Position numbers and translations under genes: made by a program
Assembly: GCA_020632155.1 (NCBI GenBank)
Contig: JACKGE010000001.1
Location: 314,285 to 378,284, forward strand
Source: Candidatus Nomurabacteria bacterium
Lineage (GTDB): Bacteria; Patescibacteriota; Minisyncoccia; Phycocordibacterales; UBA918
Direction: 5' to 3'
Length of the DNA stretch: 64,000 nt
Notes under the pieces: model-generated
Told to the model about the DNA's origin: nothing
Seen by the model: only the letters and a program-made list of their open reading frames with translations
The model's database searches: none
Shown here: piece by piece, positions 4,634-58,151 of the stretch
Position numbering within the stretch: position 1 is the first letter of the stretch
Layout: the number at the start of each line of letters is the position of its first letter

Positions 4634-5047
4634 CTAGGTCAGAAGGACCAGAAAGTAACCAAAGGCTAGAGGTATGCCAAAAGGAAGTCCTCGGCGTTGG
4701 TCTTTTTGGTAATACAGTACGGCGGCGGTTACTAATGTTGCTACCACACATCCGTTGATGAATAAAGCCATCTGTCCGCTGACAGGCCCTATTCCAAAAA
4801 GTAGGACTGCGGTAAGCTTCCCGTCACCGGCTCCCCACACTTGGAGATTGAAGAGCACTAGCCCCATCAATAACGTACTCAACCCAAGGGTAAGTGATCC
4901 CAAAAAATCAGGGTCACCCTCAAAGACCTTCTGTGCGCTAATGATGATAAGGAGCAGTAGGATGTTTTTATTGCTTATAATCCTACTCCTCCAATCAGAA
5001 ATTGCGACCCAGCAGAGGAGGGCCGCAGCAATCGAATCAAAGAACAT
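4634..5047 (-). CDS. Type IV prepilin peptidase, A24 family, CpaA/TadV-like (short)
   Basis: Polytopic membrane protein with a ...WGAGDGKL... aspartate motif resembling the CpaA/TadV GxGDxKL motif. Strong SD (GAGGAGGG) 7 nt upstream. Immediately downstream of an Flp pilin gene. Confidence 0.55.
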   Translation of the reverse strand: MFFDSIAAALLCWVAISDWRSRIISNKNILLLLIIISAQKVFEGDPDFLGSLTLGLSTLLMGLVLFNLQVWGAGDGKLTAVLLFGIGPVSGQMALFINGCVVATLVTAAVLYYQKDQRRGLPFGIPLAFGYFLVLLT

Positions 5048-5328: not shown

Positions 5329-6771
5329 ATGTCTGAGCCAAAACCGCGTTATATAACCACCACCTTGCCCTATGTAAATGCTGACCCGCACGTTGGTTTT
5401 GCTCTGGAGGCAGTGCAAGCTGATGCCCTCGCACGTTACTGGCGGCTTATGGGCCACGAAGTCTTTTTCAACACTGGTACTGACGAGCATGGCCAGAAAA
5501 TTGCCCAGAAGGCTGACGAAGCAGGGAGGGATAGGCAAGAGTATGTAGATCACTATGCTGGGCAGTTTAATAAGCTCAAAGAAGCCCTCAACCTCTCTTA
5601 CGATCATTTTATTCGCACTACTGATGACGCCCACAAAGCAGCAGCGCAGGCTATCTGGCAGAAGTGTGCCGAGAACGGCGACATCTACAAAAAGAAATAC
5701 AAAGGCCTCTACTGTGTTGGCTGCGAGTTGTTTGTCCGCGAGAGCGACCTTGTTGATGGCAAGTGTCCGCACCACCCTAACCAAGAGCTGCAAGAGATCG
5801 AGGAAGAAAATTACTTCTTTGCACTTTCTAAGTACCAGTCGTACCTAGAGGAGTATCTCAGTGGCGATAGCGTTACGCCGGACTGGCAGCGAGCGTGGGC
5901 GCTAGAGTTTGTGAAAAAGGGTCTTGAGGACTTTAGTATCTCGCGCGAACGTGCTCGCCTCGATTGGGGTGTGCCGGTACCAAATGACGAGGATCAGGTC
6001 ATGTATGTGTGGTTTGATGCCCTTACTAACTACATCTCAACCCTCGGTTGGCCGGAGGATAGCGAGGGAACGTTTAAGAAGTTTTGGACTGACGGAGAGA
6101 CACTGCAGCTAGCCGGCAAAGACCAAGTACGTTTCCAGTCCATCATGTGGCAAGCAATGCTGAAAAGTGCCGGTGTGAAAGCCACTGACAAGGTCTTTTA
6201 CCATGGCTTTATCACGAGCGGTGGCCAGAAGATGAGCAAGAGCGTTGGTAACGTCATTTCACCGTACGAACTCGTGGAGCGTTATGGTACCGATGCGGCG
6301 CGGTACATTCTCCTGCGGCACGTGCATCCAACTGACGACTCGGACCTCACATGGGAAAAAATGGATGAGTGGTACACCGCCAACTTGGTTAATGGCCTTG
6401 GCAACCTCACCGCTCGTATCATGAAAATGGCTGAGACACACCTTGATAGTCCGATTGAAAAACCAGAGGTTGGTCAGTTCGATGAAGCGTATCTAAAAGC
6501 TCTTGATGAGTACGATTTCATGACTGCGTGTGATTTTGTCTGGAAGAAAGTAGGAGAGCTTGATGAGAAGATAACTGAGACCGAGCCATTCAAGTTGGTA
6601 AAAACTGATAAAGAAGCTGCGGTGAAAATAATCAAAGAGTTGGTTCACGATCTTTATATCGTTGGTCGCATGCTATTTCCACTGATGCCCAAGGCTAACG
6701 TAGCGATTAAAGAAGCCGTCCTCGCCAACAAAAAACCAGACAACCTCTTTAACCGTTTAGAAGATAAGTAG
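5329..6771 (+). CDS. metG: Methionyl-tRNA synthetase
   Basis: TTTLPYVNADPHVGFALEAVQADALARYWRLMGHEVFFNTGTDEHGQKI (HIGH-type motif) ...KMSKSVGN (KMSKS motif). Confidence 0.9.
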   Translation: MSEPKPRYITTTLPYVNADPHVGFALEAVQADALARYWRLMGHEVFFNTGTDEHGQKIAQKADEAGRDRQEYVDHYAGQFNKLKEALNLSYDHFIRTTDDAHKAAAQAIWQKCAENGDIYKKKYKGLYCVGCELFVRESDLVDGKCPHHPNQELQEIEEENYFFALSKYQSYLEEYLSGDSVTPDWQRAWALEFVKKGLEDFSISRERARLDWGVPVPNDEDQVMYVWFDALTNYISTLGWPEDSEGTFKKFWTDGETLQLAGKDQVRFQSIMWQAMLKSAGVKATDKVFYHGFITSGGQKMSKSVGNVISPYELVERYGTDAARYILLRHVHPTDDSDLTWEKMDEWYTANLVNGLGNLTARIMKMAETHLDSPIEKPEVGQFDEAYLKALDEYDFMTACDFVWKKVGELDEKITETEPFKLVKTDKEAAVKIIKELVHDLYIVGRMLFPLMPKANVAIKEAVLANKKPDNLFNRLEDK

Positions 6772-6798
6772 TTTATGTATCATATATGATACATAAAC
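6771..6798. repeat. 28-bp perfect palindrome GTTTATGTATCATATATGATACATAAAC (family B)
   Basis: Direct reading. Sits between the metG stop and the next gene. Core TATGTATCATATATGATACATA recurs at 48211-48234. Confidence 0.8.
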
Positions 6799-8266: not shown

Positions 8267-8300
8267 ATCAGGATACAAGAACTGCTCCAATTAAAGACAA

Positions 8301-8356
8301 CACAGCGCCCTCTTTATATAGTACGGTTAACCGTACTATATAAAGAGGGCGCTGTG
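8301..8356. terminator. 56-bp perfect palindrome between convergent genes. Likely a bidirectional terminator hairpin whose core is family-A palindrome TATAGTACGGTTAACCGTACTATA
   Basis: CACAGCGCCCTCTTTATATAGTACGGTT|AACCGTACTATATAAAGAGGGCGCTGTG is self-complementary end to end. Lies between the stop of 8021-8266 (+) and the stop of 8372-8782 (-). Confidence 0.6.
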
Positions 8357-8371
8357 TTAAAAATGTTCTTG

Positions 8372-8782
8372 CTATTCAACTCGTTGTAATACAGACTTCC
8401 AGCGACCCCGTCCACGCGGAGGCATTCCTGCTTGTAATATTATTTCTAAAACTTCCCAAAACTTTCGATAGTCAGACTTGTTTTGTTTTAATATCGTTTC
8501 GATGTGTTTGTACCGACCACATTCATAATCTAAACGTATCTTCTCAGCGGTTGACGGACTGAGTTGTAGTAATTGCCATACGCGATAAGAGGAATTACCT
8601 TCAATGAACATTGTTATCGCAGCCAATCTTTTGATCAGCATTATTTTTTCTTCAGGCCCAAGCAAATCGTCAAAAAAATGCACTGCTGAGTTAACATTTA
8701 AGTCAGCCACCACTTTTCCAAATTGTTGGTATAGCTTATCAAATTCAGTCGCAGGGAGCTTTCTCTTCGAGACATTGGTCAT
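8372..8782 (-). CDS. TrpR/YerC/YecD-like helix-turn-helix DNA-binding protein
   Basis: ...EEKIMLIKRLAAITMFIEGNSSYRVWQLLQLSPSTAEKIR... resembles the TrpR-like (YerC) HTH. Flanked by family-A palindromes: 5 nt upstream of the start, and inside the downstream terminator. Confidence 0.5.
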   Translation of the reverse strand: MTNVSKRKLPATEFDKLYQQFGKVVADLNVNSAVHFFDDLLGPEEKIMLIKRLAAITMFIEGNSSYRVWQLLQLSPSTAEKIRLDYECGRYKHIETILKQNKSDYRKFWEVLEIILQAGMPPRGRGRWKSVLQRVE

Positions 8783-8786
8783 AAAT

Positions 8787-8812
8787 TTATAGTACGGTTA
8801 ACCGTACTATAA
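8787..8812. promoter_or_regulatory. 26-bp perfect palindrome TTATAGTACGGTTAACCGTACTATAA; candidate operator 5 nt upstream of the TrpR-like gene start
   Basis: Direct reading. Same core as 8301-8356 and 55391-55412. Confidence 0.5.
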
Positions 8813-8857
8813 CGCAATAGGGGTCCTGTGGTACTGTTACTAATAATTTAAATTTAT

Positions 8858-15204: not shown

Positions 15205-15221
15205 ATATAGTAGGGATACAC

Positions 15222-15252
15222 AAAAGGCCGGCGCGTAGCGCCGGCCTTTTGT
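15222..15252. terminator. Bidirectional terminator AAAAGGCCGGCGC-gtag-GCGCCGGCCTTTTGT
   Basis: Lies between convergent 14881-15204 (+) and recA (-). Confidence 0.7.
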
Positions 15253-15266
15253 GTACTCTGTATCCC

Positions 15267-47769: not shown

Positions 47770-47820
47770 GCAAAAACAGATAACAAAAATAAGTCTTTGT
47801 ATCCTATAGGATACAAAGAC

Positions 47821-48210
47821 TTATTTTTGTTTCCACATTTCTTCTATCAATGAAAAAAGTAAAAAGTGAGTAGGGTATTTTTTCTTAAGATTTTCATACG
47901 AAAAAGGCGGGACAAATTTTGAGGCATGTTTTTTACTTACACGTTGGTTATTTTTTTGATAAGAAGAAACATATTCACTAAATTCATTTTCCAACCAACG
48001 ATTCATCTGAGCAAATGTGTTTGGGCTTACCTGAAGCCGGTCATTAATTTCAAAACGTGTTTTACCAGACAAAATCGCTTGAGCAATAAGTATACGTCGA
48101 CCAAGTGCGATTTTTTCGCGCTCAGTCAATAGTCGAACAATGGTTTCAACTTCATTGGCGGTTGCAATTTCGAAAGCTTGTAGGGCAAGCTCGTCAATGT
48201 CTTTTTTCAT
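47821..48210 (-). CDS. TrpR/YerC/YecD-like HTH DNA-binding protein (second paralog)
   Basis: ...LTEREKIALGRRILIAQAILSGKTRFEINDRLQVSPNTFAQMNRWL... Family-B palindrome abuts its start codon. Confidence 0.55.
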   Translation of the reverse strand: MKKDIDELALQAFEIATANEVETIVRLLTEREKIALGRRILIAQAILSGKTRFEINDRLQVSPNTFAQMNRWLENEFSEYVSSYQKNNQRVSKKHASKFVPPFSYENLKKKYPTHFLLFSLIEEMWKQK

Positions 48211-48234
48211 CTATGTATCATATATGATACATAG
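48211..48234. promoter_or_regulatory. 24-bp perfect palindrome CTATGTATCATATATGATACATAG (family B) directly abutting the start of the TrpR-like gene
   Basis: Direct reading. Same core as 6771-6798. Confidence 0.5.
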
Positions 48235-48263
48235 AGATATATAAAATAAGTGGAGGAGTTAAT

Positions 48264-52631: not shown

Positions 52632-52942
52632 GGAAAGACCTACCCCAAAAAGGATAAGACAAAAGAGATAGCAAAGACAAGAAAGACGCTTACACCCTTG
52701 GTATAAGCGTCTTTCTTGTTGCGCAAGCACATACTTTTGTGACCCACTTTGAGAGGTTGGTCTACGCGAGCGAAAGCCCCGCTTACAGCGGCTGTTCAGG
52801 TTGATGTTATTTTTCATTCTTCAAAATAACTAGCAACCTCTTGCGAAGTGACATTTAGTCACTTCTCACCCCAAAAAGGATAAGACAAAAGAAGATGCAA
52901 ATAGACAAGAAAAAATGACCCAGCACTGCTGGGTCATTTTTT
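52632..52942 (+). repeat. Duplicated module downstream of the 16S. Direct repeat CCCCAAAAAGGATAAGACAAAAGA (52632 and 52869), each followed by a long terminator-like hairpin (52677-52718; 52901-52942)
   Basis: Direct reading. Hairpins CAAGAAAGACGCTTACACC-cttg-GTATAAGCGTCTTTCTTG and CAAGAAAAAATGACCCAGC-actg-CTGGGTCATTTTTTCTTG. Confidence 0.6.
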
Positions 52943-52968
52943 CTTGTTGTACAACCATTCTTTAGATG

Positions 52969-54228: not shown

Positions 54229-55572
54229 ATGGATTTCTCGGAACAGTTCAAAGGCAAGAAGATAACGGTTATGGGGCTCGGTCTTTTGGGTCGGGGTGTT
54301 GGTGACGCAGCGTATTTAGCCGAATGTGGCGCAGAAGTGACGGTTACCGACCTCAAATCTGAGGAACAACTTACCGATTCGGTCGAAAAACTTAAATTGT
54401 ACCCAAACGTACGTTTTGCGCTCAACGGACACAAAGAAGAAGATTTTGAAAACGTTGATATGGTACTTGTCGCTGCTGGGGTGCCGTTTGACTCTCCATA
54501 TTTAGCTCATGCCCATAAGGCCGGTGTGCCATTGAAGCAAAGTGCGGCACTCTTTGCTGAGTTATCTGGCATTCCTATTATTGGCGTTACCGGTACCCGC
54601 GGTAAAAGTACGGTCACTGCTATGGTCCATCATGTTCTGTCGGTCACTACCGGTGAACACATCATTAAGGGCGGTAATGTGCGTGGTGTCTCTAATTTAC
54701 AGTTGCTCAAAGAAGTGAAAGAAGACTCGTTAGCGGTACTGGAGCTTGATTCATGGCAATTGCAAGGTTTTGGGTGGGCTGGTATTTCACCGCAGATCGT
54801 GGTCTTCACCAATTTCATGCCCGATCACATGAATTACTATAAGAATGATATGGACGCATACTTTACGGATAAAGCAAACATCTTTTTACACCAAAAAGAG
54901 AGTGGCGTGTTCATCACGGTGCCGGAGGTATTTGAACGAGCAAAAAAAATGGCAGGCACACTTGGTCAGGAGGTGGTGTTGGTGGATGATTCAACCTTGC
55001 CAGAGGACGTACTGCTTTCAATGCCAGGTGAGCACAATCGCCTCAATGCCGCTCTAGCGGTGGCGGCCCTTCGCGCTGTTAGCCTCACGGATGAGGAAAT
55101 ATTTACTGGTCTTGCCAGTTTCTCTGGCGTTGAAGGTCGCTTGCAACTGCTCACAACCGTCGACAATGTTCGTATCTACAACGACAACAATGCCACTACA
55201 CCGCAGGCCACCGTAGCGGCTCTTGAAGCCCTTGATGTTGGCAACAAAAACATTGTGCTTATTGCGGGCGGCGCTGATAAAGGCCTTGAACTACTGCAGT
55301 TAACTGCGGCAATCAGGGAGCACTGTAAGCAAACAATACTTATCCCGGGTACCGGTACAGAGAGATTGCTCGCAGCTCTAGAGGGGGGAAATAGTACGGT
55401 TAACCGTACTATAGCAGTAGAAGATTTGCAGCAGGCAGTAGAAGAGGCGCGGCTGGCAGCCAAAAATGGCGATATTATCCTCTTTAGCCCAGCCTTCTCA
55501 TCATTCAGTCAGTACAATAATGAATATGAGCGTAATGATGAATTTGTTGAGTTAGTGAAAAAATATGAGTAA
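54229..55572 (+). CDS. murD: UDP-N-acetylmuramoyl-L-alanine--D-glutamate ligase
   Basis: MDFSEQFKGKKITVMGLGLLGRGVGDAAYLAECGAEVTVTD...IIGVTGTRGKSTVTAM... Start trimmed: the track ORF's first 127 codons read through tRNA fragments and repeats. Family-A palindrome embedded in-frame at 55391-55412. Confidence 0.85.
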   Translation: MDFSEQFKGKKITVMGLGLLGRGVGDAAYLAECGAEVTVTDLKSEEQLTDSVEKLKLYPNVRFALNGHKEEDFENVDMVLVAAGVPFDSPYLAHAHKAGVPLKQSAALFAELSGIPIIGVTGTRGKSTVTAMVHHVLSVTTGEHIIKGGNVRGVSNLQLLKEVKEDSLAVLELDSWQLQGFGWAGISPQIVVFTNFMPDHMNYYKNDMDAYFTDKANIFLHQKESGVFITVPEVFERAKKMAGTLGQEVVLVDDSTLPEDVLLSMPGEHNRLNAALAVAALRAVSLTDEEIFTGLASFSGVEGRLQLLTTVDNVRIYNDNNATTPQATVAALEALDVGNKNIVLIAGGADKGLELLQLTAAIREHCKQTILIPGTGTERLLAALEGGNSTVNRTIAVEDLQQAVEEARLAAKNGDIILFSPAFSSFSQYNNEYERNDEFVELVKKYE

Positions 55573-57443: not shown

Positions 57444-58151
57444 ATGGAAGAGAAAGGAACGCTATCAATAGCTGCCACCCCGATCGGGAACCTTGAGGAC
57501 ATTACCTTGCGTGCTCTTCGAGTGCTCAAAGAAGCCGATTATGTACTCTGTGAAGATACGCGGGTAACGGGGAAGCTACTCAAACACTACAATATTGAAA
57601 CCAAGCTCAAACGCTATGACGCACACGCGAGCGAAAAAGTACACGAGCAAGTATTGGCTGATCTCGCAGCAGGGAAACATATTGCCTTGGTGAGCGATGC
57701 TGGTACGCCGAGCGTGAGTGATCCGGGGGTACTGTTGGTGTCAAACGCGCGCGCCGCAGGCGCGCGCGTTGAGACCATTCCCGGCCCTTCAGCGGTGACG
57801 GCAGCTTTCTCTATTGCCGGACTCACCGGCAACCAGTTCACTTTCTTGGGTTTTGTACCACAGAAAAAGGGACGTGAGACTTTTTTCAAAGCGCTGGCGG
57901 AGTATGATTATCCGGTTATTTTCTTTGAATCAACACACCGCATTATGAAAACCCTCCATGCTTTATCAGAAACGTATGGGGAAAATAGTACGATATATCG
58001 TACAATAATGGTGGCGAGAGAATTGACCAAAATGCATGAAGAAATGGTCCTAGGCACTCCCGAGGAGGTGTTGACCTATTTTGAAAGCTCTCCAGAAAAA
58101 CAGCGAGGGGAGTTTGTAGTCATTGTGGCCCCAGAAGGACGTGCGGTATAA
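57444..58151 (+). CDS. rsmI: 16S rRNA (cytidine1402-2'-O)-methyltransferase
   Basis: GTLSIAATPIGNLEDITLRALRVLKEADYVLCEDTRVTGKLLKHY...ARELTKMHEE. A 16-bp palindrome GTACGATATATCGTAC is embedded at 57987-58002. Confidence 0.85.
   Translation: MEEKGTLSIAATPIGNLEDITLRALRVLKEADYVLCEDTRVTGKLLKHYNIETKLKRYDAHASEKVHEQVLADLAAGKHIALVSDAGTPSVSDPGVLLVSNARAAGARVETIPGPSAVTAAFSIAGLTGNQFTFLGFVPQKKGRETFFKALAEYDYPVIFFESTHRIMKTLHALSETYGENSTIYRTIMVARELTKMHEEMVLGTPEEVLTYFESSPEKQRGEFVVIVAPEGRAV

Follow-up and report, generated by a model that had tools for sequence, protein, structure and literature searches.

A TrpR/YerC-fold gene enclosed by lineage-specific palindromes in Patescibacteria, with candidate operators at its putative promoter and in-frame copies in housekeeping genes

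A stretch of 64,000 nucleotides from a Candidatus Nomurabacteria assembly (GCA_020632155.1, contig JACKGE010000001.1, positions 314,285 to 378,284; hereafter the window) carries on its minus strand, at 8372..8782, the gene of a 136-amino-acid (aa) protein of the TrpR/YerC fold with a helix-turn-helix (HTH), and this gene is enclosed on both sides by perfect palindromes that have a common core. We consider it probable (about 0.7) that these palindromes are operators of the adjacent TrpR-fold dimer, of which the upstream copy would autorepress a leaderless promoter, the downstream copy would provide a second site and the transcript end, and the other copies would be further conserved sites. The arrangement is conserved and appears to co-evolve across related lineages, and as such it points to an unstudied regulator.

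The gene, its protein and the enclosing palindromes

The downstream palindrome (8299-8358) is located 13 nt past the stop codon, between convergent genes, and is perfect over 60 bp, with two arms of 30 bp and no spacer; the preliminary description of this DNA had placed it correctly and had given it too short, as 56 bp (8301-8356). The upstream palindrome (8787-8812), with the core TAGTACGGTTAACCGTACTA at 8790-8809, is the candidate operator; it is perfect over 26 bp as described before, is separated from the ATG by four bases (8783-8786), and has its centre 17 nt away from the A of that codon. A 24-bp core, TATAGTACGGTTAACCGTACTATA, is common to both palindromes (8317-8340, in the centre of the 60-mer, and 8788-8811), and a third copy with one mismatch is found at 55390-55413. 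This core did not occur in any of 100 dinucleotide-preserving shuffles, in agreement with the earlier remark that palindromes of this length are unlikely by chance, and the feature is real. A scan of the 64 kb for TAGTACG-N6-CGTACTA detected exactly four sites (8319, 8790, 55392 and 57986), the last of them with one mismatch and the centre ATATAT, and no intermediate or degenerate matches above the shuffle background were present in the window, so that the sites are all-or-none there. The core is thus represented by few sites (four in the 64 kb) and not by many scattered copies. The HpaI-type site noted before in the centre of the palindromes proved irrelevant, and a restriction-site reading was rejected, because the centre is another palindromic hexamer in other lineages (GTTAAC, ATTAAT, ATCGAT, ATATAT, TTCGAA, ATGCAT and others), even within one genome. 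The in-frame copies in murD and rsmI, the cross-lineage co-evolution of the copies and a second, paralogous system, all treated below, had been missed.

The canonical 20-mer was scanned across 185,579 species-representative genomes (596 Gb), and 32 stretches were matched, from about 14 metagenome-assembled genomes (MAGs) of Patescibacteria, all but one stretch being from that group; about 0.5 matches are expected by chance according to our own estimate. Each MAG holds one to six exact 20-mers, and none was found in viral contigs. Two copies enclose a gene of 135-140 aa at a distance of 445-454 bp from each other in three of the stretches (L004, L016 and L031), and in a fourth (L010) with one mismatch. 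A wider homolog set was composed of contigs of divergent homologs and 80 metagenome loci, with 78 evaluable loci of 30-100% identity, and a bracket was counted wherever the last 75 nt ahead of the ATG and the first 100 nt behind the stop codon had a word of 12 nt or more in common. The same word (median 20 nt) was present on both flanks of the gene at 73 of the 78 loci, whereas the control comparison of the upstream region with the interior of the open reading frame (ORF) gave 0 of 156, with a longest common word of 10 nt. The preliminary description had held that absence of the palindrome at orthologous loci would speak against an operator; what nearly all of the homologous loci display is a palindrome on both flanks, in lineage-specific form. 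Near-perfect palindromes with matching centres occupied both flanks at 62 of the 78 loci, and the perfect length had a median of 26 bp for the upstream and the downstream copies alike.

The sequence of the palindrome is strongly lineage-dependent, and the two flank copies of one gene agree with each other. It reads TAGTACGATTAATCGTACTA in L033, TAGTACGATCGATCGTACTA in L035, TATCGCGGTTAACCGCGATA in L036, CTATCCGATATATCGGATAG in L037, TAGTACAGTTAACTGTACTA in L038 and CTTACGGTTAACCGTAAG in L039, while ACCTTTCGGTTAACCGAAAGGT, ACCTTCCATTCGAATGGAAGGT, TAGTGCGATGCATCGCACTA and others are found elsewhere. The bracket around the gene is conserved, the palindrome covaries with the lineage, and the positions relative to the ATG and the stop codon are fixed. 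The order tatD, gene, metG is kept in the window and in L033, L035 and L039 while the palindrome differs, and tatD is also kept in L038, where metG was not called. Synteny that is maintained while the palindrome changes indicates a vertically inherited chromosomal gene and rules out a mobile cassette. The small palindromic mobile element that had been proposed as an alternative is not supported either, in view of the conserved synteny, the low copy number and the rsmI copy, which is free of indels with respect to site-less homologs.

The protein is, judged from profiles and from a predicted structure, a distant TrpR/YerC(HisR)-fold member of a large Patescibacteria family. It is 100% identical to NCBI KC722_02265, a hypothetical protein from a MAG of Candidatus Kaiserbacteria, an uncultured and ultra-small bacterium, and its HTH comprises approximately residues 65-87. 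Apart from Trp_repressor, considered below, Pfam returned only a weak HTH_23 match for the window protein, and no NCBIfam match was found for it. On the other hand, a family profile built from 38 homologs matches YerC/HisR-like entries of the PDB (3KOR, E=1.2e-5; 3G1C, 4.4e-4; 3FRW, 7.8e-4), and a precomputed PF01371 match is present in a few homologs. The AlphaFold2 model of the 136-aa protein (mean predicted local distance difference test score, pLDDT, of 86) comprises eight helices, and its 26 best Foldseek matches in the PDB are all TrpR/YerC-like (probability 0.66-1.0, target TM-scores 0.53-0.74), which corresponds to the TrpR-type all-helical fold with an HTH. The alignment of the family contains the TrpR-type segment LLGxEEKIMLxKRLAAI...SSYRVWQLLxxSPSTAERI, and the C-terminal tail AGMPPRGRGRWKS (PRGRGRW), which TrpR and HisR do not possess, is almost invariant in it. 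The family consists of 1,127 clusters (50% identity) at E<=1e-10, nearly all of 125-150 aa. It forms a new branch of the TrpR/YerC family, structurally extended and with an unusual arrangement of candidate operators that is kept across many lineages, and no published description of the family or of its sites was found in the literature on Patescibacteria (the candidate phyla radiation, CPR) and TrpR or palindromic regulons. Neither this protein nor the second TrpR-like protein of the window has a match in the defence and phage libraries PADLOC and PHROGs; together with the absence of the 20-mer from viral contigs, this led to the rejection of a defence or phage origin.

Proposed promoter geometry and the site after the stop codon

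At most of 83 loci a lineage-specific perfect palindrome is centred 11-37 nt upstream of the ATG. The distance from centre to ATG is bimodal, with one group at 17 nt (n=15, plus five at 15-16 nt) and another at 27-30 nt (n=31). Of 78 unique upstream regions, 32 have a TANNNT hexamer that ends exactly 6 nt short of the ATG, compared with 1-10 regions at most other offsets and a secondary peak of 18 regions at offset 18, and a Shine-Dalgarno-like motif was seen in only one of the 78. In the window, the candidate -10 element TACTAT (8789-8794, minus strand) coincides with the outer half-site of the operator and is followed by exactly 6 nt and the ATG, and a candidate -35 element TTGCGT (8812-8817, minus strand) precedes it with a 17-nt spacer; a Shine-Dalgarno sequence is lacking here. 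The palindrome would thus cover the -10 element in one group of loci and the -35 element with the spacer in the other, which fits the classical geometry of autorepression, in this case of a leaderless promoter.

In the mechanism that we favour, the 136-aa protein would bind the palindromes as a dimer. The upstream copy would overlap the -10 element and the spacer of the gene's own promoter, and since the transcript probably starts at the ATG, a dimer bound there would block RNA polymerase and give negative autoregulation. A small-molecule co-repressor may take part, and the PRGRGRW tail, which resembles an AT-hook, may contact the AT-rich centre of the palindrome through the minor groove. The earlier suggestion of an autoregulatory operator for the adjacent HTH protein gains strong comparative support from the frequency of the bracket, its lineage covariation, the fixed distance to the ATG and the overlap with a -10-like element.

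The downstream palindrome has its centre at a median of 16 nt after the stop codon among the homologous loci. As RNA, the 60-mer of the window folds with -52 kcal/mol (z = -16.6) and the short copies with -12 to -14 kcal/mol. The preliminary description had assigned to the downstream copy the role of a terminator between convergent genes; the window copy does appear terminator-like on the minus strand, with the tail TGTGTTGTCT, but a T-rich tail (5 or more T within the following 8 nt) follows only 4 of 60 downstream copies in the homolog loci, so that a terminator role of the downstream copy finds weak support. The centre-to-centre distance of the flank copies ranges from 421 to 532 bp, with no periodicity of 10-11 bp (R=0.02-0.12). 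Given the median 16-nt position, the rarity of T-rich tails and the lack of helical periodicity, we regard the downstream copy as a putative second operator that would also close the transcription unit, as a barrier or terminator. Conventional terminator-like hairpins with unrelated G+C-rich stems and A/T runs are found elsewhere in the window (15217-15255, 22614-22647, 52677-52719 and 52905-52947), which indicates that the genome has conventional terminators besides the operator-containing palindromes.

The hairpins raise the question of whether the palindromes act as RNA, as terminators or in the stability or processing of mRNA, with the proximity of the HTH gene being incidental to any DNA binding. 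The high stability of the folds, the terminator-like window copy, the many copies just after stop codons and the symmetric arm changes, which preserve pairing, are all in line with this. However, the central 4-6 nt, where a hairpin would have its loop, are always self-complementary (GTTAAC, ATTAAT, ATCGAT, ATATAT, TTCGAA, ATGCAT, GTATAC, ACCGGT, AACGTT), which suits the two-fold symmetry of a DNA site better than a loop in RNA, and single-arm variants have no bias toward G-U pairs. A leaderless start would also leave the upstream copy outside the mRNA of the gene, and T-rich tails are as rare as stated above. No Rfam family reached its threshold, and a known RNA family was rejected because the sub-threshold matches (plant miRNA hairpin models and TwoAYGGAY; 37 bits against 113-171) are generic matches to long hairpins. 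An RNA role would also leave unexplained why the sequence tracks one HTH family at nearly all homologous loci, and of the explanations weighed here we give this one the least credence.

Copies inside housekeeping genes and their possible roles

Two of the four sites of the window are located inside genes. The murD copy, AATAGTACGGTTAACCGTACTATA (55390..55413), lies 152 nt upstream of the start of murC; the peptide that it encodes, N-S-T-V-N-R-T-I, belongs to a surface loop in the C-terminal domain of MurD. The rsmI copy, TAGTACGATATATCGTACAA (57986..58005), is a centre variant that contains a perfect 16-bp palindrome (57988-58003) and encodes S-T-I-Y-R-T. In other genomes the canonical 20-mer is found at the orthologous murD position (L012, L030 and L015, as in the window), inside rsmI (L007, L014, L024 and L018), inside leuS (L013, L017, L021 and L032) and inside apbE (L002 and L025), as well as between an MBL-fold gene and rpmB (L027 and L029) and upstream of ybjQ (L011 and L023). 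The sites were thus found at the gene itself, murD, rsmI, leuS, apbE, MBL/rpmB and ybjQ, and no trp or his gene was among these places. The 16 intragenic copies are all in the S-T-V-N-R-T frame; of the alternative frames of the 20-mer, one contains TAG and TAA stop codons and the third would encode the hydrophobic VRLTVL. At orthologous positions the core is 100% identical, whereas the 45-nt flanks have 32-56% ungapped identity (with the exception of one apbE flank, a single pair, at 87%), so that the identity of the core does not derive from recent common ancestry.

Some of the synthetase genes have peculiarities of their own. According to Pfam, the leucyl-tRNA synthetases of L013, L017, L021 and L032 have a NUDIX domain as an insertion behind the editing domain. 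Class I tRNA synthetase genes of approximately 1,190-1,200 aa (tRNA-synt_1, Anticodon_1, DUF5915) in L033 (16545-20147), L035 (16262-19834) and L039 (17510-20417) contain a His_Phos_1 (histidine-phosphatase) match inside the synthetase core.

The MurD octapeptide sits in a loop of variable length, and the closest relatives (70% identity) do not have it. In other homologs the same loop contains STVNCT, STIDRT, MSINRH, IAINRD, TLIYQS or TSIYGS, peptides that are readable only as other perfect palindromes. This was checked at the DNA level in three cases: the murD loop of L120 contains TATGTCGATTAATCGACATA, with a second copy on the same contig; that of L121 contains TATCGCGATTAATCGCGATA, which is the gene-flank type of L050; and that of L122 contains AGTACGATCGATCGTACT / GAATAGTACGATCGATCGTACTATTC, the gene-flank type of L035. 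An NSTVNCTI peptide in a MurD homolog was considered as a decayed site and is instead compatible with the perfect palindrome of another lineage, AGTACAGTTAACTGTACT. The site in RsmI is confined to the same six codons throughout (STVNRT, STIDRT, STIYRT, LTVNRK, LSIDRK, LPIDWK or SPIDWT), and STVNRT and LTVNRK align codon for codon with the same-length LPAEKK-type loops of site-less homologs. Since this alignment is free of indels, the rsmI site arose by substitution under selection on the DNA; an origin of the intragenic copies by insertion was accordingly rejected for rsmI, while the murD loop, which varies in length, is uninformative in this respect. Because the murD and rsmI loops take lineage-specific palindromic forms (STVNRT, STIDRT, IAINRD, LTVNRK and others), the DNA site dictates the peptide, and the intragenic copies are under constraint at the level of DNA.

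The dispersed sites appear to follow the lineage-specific palindromes on the gene flanks, which is what would be expected if a single protein reads all of them; within a single genome the correspondence between dispersed and gene-flank sites was seen for the canonical type only and is not always exact. The rsmI copy in particular is often unlike the remaining copies of its genome (L030 at approximately 5029-5044, L015 at 5757-5776 and the window at 57986-58005), where murD, leuS and apbE keep GGTTAACC. The sole exact 20-mer outside Patescibacteria (L020, 7541-7560) belongs to a MAG with the label Azotimanducaceae, where it is located in an ATP-citrate-lyase-like gene, in the STVNRT frame, and is probably a chance match or a misbinned contig, in view of the number of matches expected by chance. 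In the mechanism that we favour, the handful of further copies would be kept by selection at fixed places, including murD and rsmI and, in relatives, leuS and apbE; the most plausible role of the same protein there would be that of an elongation roadblock or a structural anchor.

Several observations weigh against the operator reading as stated. A consensus sigma-70 scan did not call the proposed promoter, TTGCGT/17 nt/TACTAT matching 7 of 12 positions, and the claim of a leaderless promoter thus rests on the conserved 6-nt spacing. With Pfam Trp_repressor (PF01371) the window protein reached 16.9 bits (E=0.0068), short of the 27-bit cut-off, so that the label TrpR/YerC-like given in the preliminary description stands at the level of profile and fold and fails by the Pfam threshold; the Foldseek E-values of the TrpR/YerC-like matches are also weak (0.05-1.5). 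Approximately 31 copies are distributed as 16 inside ORFs and many others just after stop codons, and apart from the promoter of the gene itself most of them are not in promoter positions, which is not what a regulon usually looks like. The sites are all-or-none and keep their perfect symmetry over at least 20 bp, which exceeds the information required by a transcription factor when the genome is about 1 Mb in size. Their centres vary within a genome yet stay palindromic (window rsmI, DYNY01, JAYTMA01 and JAWKSQ01), which would not follow from a simple half-site model: the centre in DYNY01 is ATCGAT on the gene flanks and GTTAAC in the other copies, the rsmI centre of JAYTMA01 is ATCGAT, and the rsmI site of JAWKSQ01, situated 3.7 kb from a canonical murD copy, is of another family, TTCCAATCGATTGGAA. 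Finally, a phase-dependent DNA loop between the flank copies was rejected for want of helical phasing.

The same protein and sites may instead have a mainly architectural role, as roadblock, terminator or insulator or in chromosome organisation in the manner of parS or matS, with control of the gene itself being one case among others. Most copies are inside ORFs at conserved codons or a few nt from stop codons, in many cases between genes that converge; their perfection is all-or-none, with only about 4-6 exact copies per MAG, and the gene is closed by a site on both sides, the downstream one close behind the stop codon. ParB/parS and MatP/matS resemble the present case in that each genome has a few palindromes, near-perfect and 16-20 bp long, of which many lie in conserved coding positions and one beside the gene of the binding protein; parS sites are near-perfect 16-bp palindromes and are often intragenic, which was counted in favour of such a role. 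On the other hand, the protein contains no ParB-like domain, neither the ParB N-terminal (CTPase) domain nor HTH_ParB, and at least one related genome (L034) has a canonical ParB as a separate protein. The sites of JAWKSQ01 and MFLT01 are on different contigs and unclustered, and no evidence of clustering at origin or terminus was obtained. Chromosomal parS is highly conserved, whereas the site sequence evolves fast between the lineages studied here, and the rarity of T-rich tails counts against a terminator function. We judge a mainly architectural role to be improbable. A related idea, that regulator and sites form a set of genome-wide protein-bound landmarks that co-evolve as a unit and not a conventional promoter regulon, is also rather improbable, if somewhat less so.

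The palindromes also bear some likeness to selfish or symbiotic short repeats, such as repetitive extragenic palindromic (REP) elements and REPINs or miniature inverted-repeat transposable elements (MITEs), in which case the gene would encode the cognate binding or mobilising factor. As in REP-RAYT pairs, a single-copy, vertically inherited gene is flanked by cognate short palindromes whose type covaries with the clade or protein lineage. The copies favour 3' intergenic spacers and tolerated loops, all of the intragenic ones being in the hydrophilic STVNRT frame; the outer palindrome arms vary from copy to copy, several palindrome families coexist in one genome, and arrays of at least eight copies of an asymmetric variant with a companion motif occur in L001. 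However, the protein is an all-helical HTH protein with no HUH/Y1 or DDE catalytic domain, whereas RAYT is an HUH/Y1 (IS200/IS605-like) transposase, and the copies are very few (with the exception of L001), compared with tens to hundreds in REP/REPIN systems. They are located at orthologous positions, including coding ones, in deeply diverged genomes with unrelated flanks, and the indel-free LPAEKK and LTVNRK loops of rsmI are a case of substitution and not of insertion. Gene synteny is conserved, and matches in phage and defence libraries or in viral contigs are lacking. Rickettsia palindromic elements resemble the present copies in that palindromic DNA resides in surface loops of housekeeping proteins in a tolerated frame. 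They differ in length (approximately 100-150 bp, against 18-24 bp here), in copy number, which is low here, and in their insertion, of which the rsmI copy has no trace relative to site-less homologs; moreover, the sequence here tracks a cognate DNA-binding protein. Altogether a selfish repeat is very improbable, and an operator function of the palindromes is preferred.

Paralogous systems, known relatives and significance

A second TrpR-like gene of the window, encoding a distant paralog of 129 aa (47821..48210, minus strand), is likewise bracketed, within the region 47782-48235. Among the ORFs of the window it was matched by the A1 profile with E=1.7e-6, its Pfam Trp_repressor score is 21.5 bits, and hhalign gives 80%. 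Its upstream palindrome, TCTATGTATCATA-TATGATACATAGA (48210-48235), overlaps the ATG, which is preceded by TATGAT and 6 nt, and its downstream palindrome of 50 bp (47782-47831), with the core TGTATCCTA-TAGGATACA, overlaps the stop codon. A third copy of this palindrome family, GTTTATGTATCATA-TATGATACATAAAC (6771-6798), spans the stop codon of metG and the start of the next gene; a family-B palindrome site reads TGTATCATATATGATACA. This second bracket serves as an internal replicate, and it argues that self-bracketing would be a general habit and that several orthogonal protein-site pairs may coexist; the coexistence of several palindrome families in related MAGs points in the same direction.

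Additionally, a further family, AAATATACCTGTTAACAGGTATATTT, was observed in L019 (802-833 and 1925-1954) and L005 (3830-3867), near canonical TAGTACGG-type sites, and may be the site of a further paralog. In the Kaiserbacteria MAG L001 (590-800 and 2300-2720), the copies of the asymmetric variant, GTTCGGTTAACCGTAC, are each followed by the companion motif GTGTGGTGTA(A/G)TT; these irregular arrays adjoin a homolog of the gene whose C-terminus does not have the GRGRW tail, and they look like a local proliferation of a composite repeat.

The closest known systems are those of TrpR and HisR. YerC of Bacillus subtilis is HisR, a histidine repressor of the TrpR family with 20-bp palindromic operators of lineage-specific consensus, and the gene of HisR has a site of its own in front of it in about half of the genomes (PMC9413887). 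The trp operator in the structure 1TRO reads TGTACTAGTTAACTAGTACA (PMC2504314). The present family has the same all-helical fold with an HTH, homology at the profile level to 3KOR, 3G1C and 3FRW and, as far as sequence comparison can tell, the same kind of operator, namely a lineage-specific perfect palindrome of approximately 20 bp that also precedes the gene itself. The site GTACGGTTAACCGTAC resembles the trp operator, with GTAC-GGTTAACC-GTAC here and GTAC-TAGTTAACTA-GTAC there, although the GTAC blocks are 8 bp apart here and 10 bp apart in the trp operator. TrpR and HisR are shorter than 110 aa, whereas the proteins described here have about 135 aa, an extra helix and the conserved PRGRGRW tail, and the window protein scores below the Pfam gathering threshold. 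Unlike those of TrpR and HisR, their sites, in Patescibacteria, are not beside trp or his genes, where control of amino-acid biosynthesis or uptake would place them. Only here is the site duplicated right after the stop codon in nearly every lineage, and only here are in-frame copies found in housekeeping genes.

Patescibacteria (CPR) represent a large share of bacterial diversity, are mostly uncultured and have very few recognisable regulators. For the regulator proposed here, a small conserved target set is indicated, comprising the gene itself, murD-murC, rsmI, leuS, apbE and rpmB. If the reading of the sites as landmarks were true, the specificity of the protein would drift fast between lineages and every site would follow, including the codons of murD, rsmI and leuS; the sites would then act as sequence-specific roadblocks, terminators or insulators in tiny genomes, possibly with several mutually orthogonal paralogous systems per genome. 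The in-frame copies appear to be an unusually clear natural case of a DNA-binding site that constrains, and co-evolves with, the sequence of unrelated housekeeping proteins. Since the site can be read from the flanks of each gene, the specificity would be predictable for hundreds of lineages without experiment, and the many putative protein-site pairs would provide a data set for learning the recognition code of the TrpR-type HTH.

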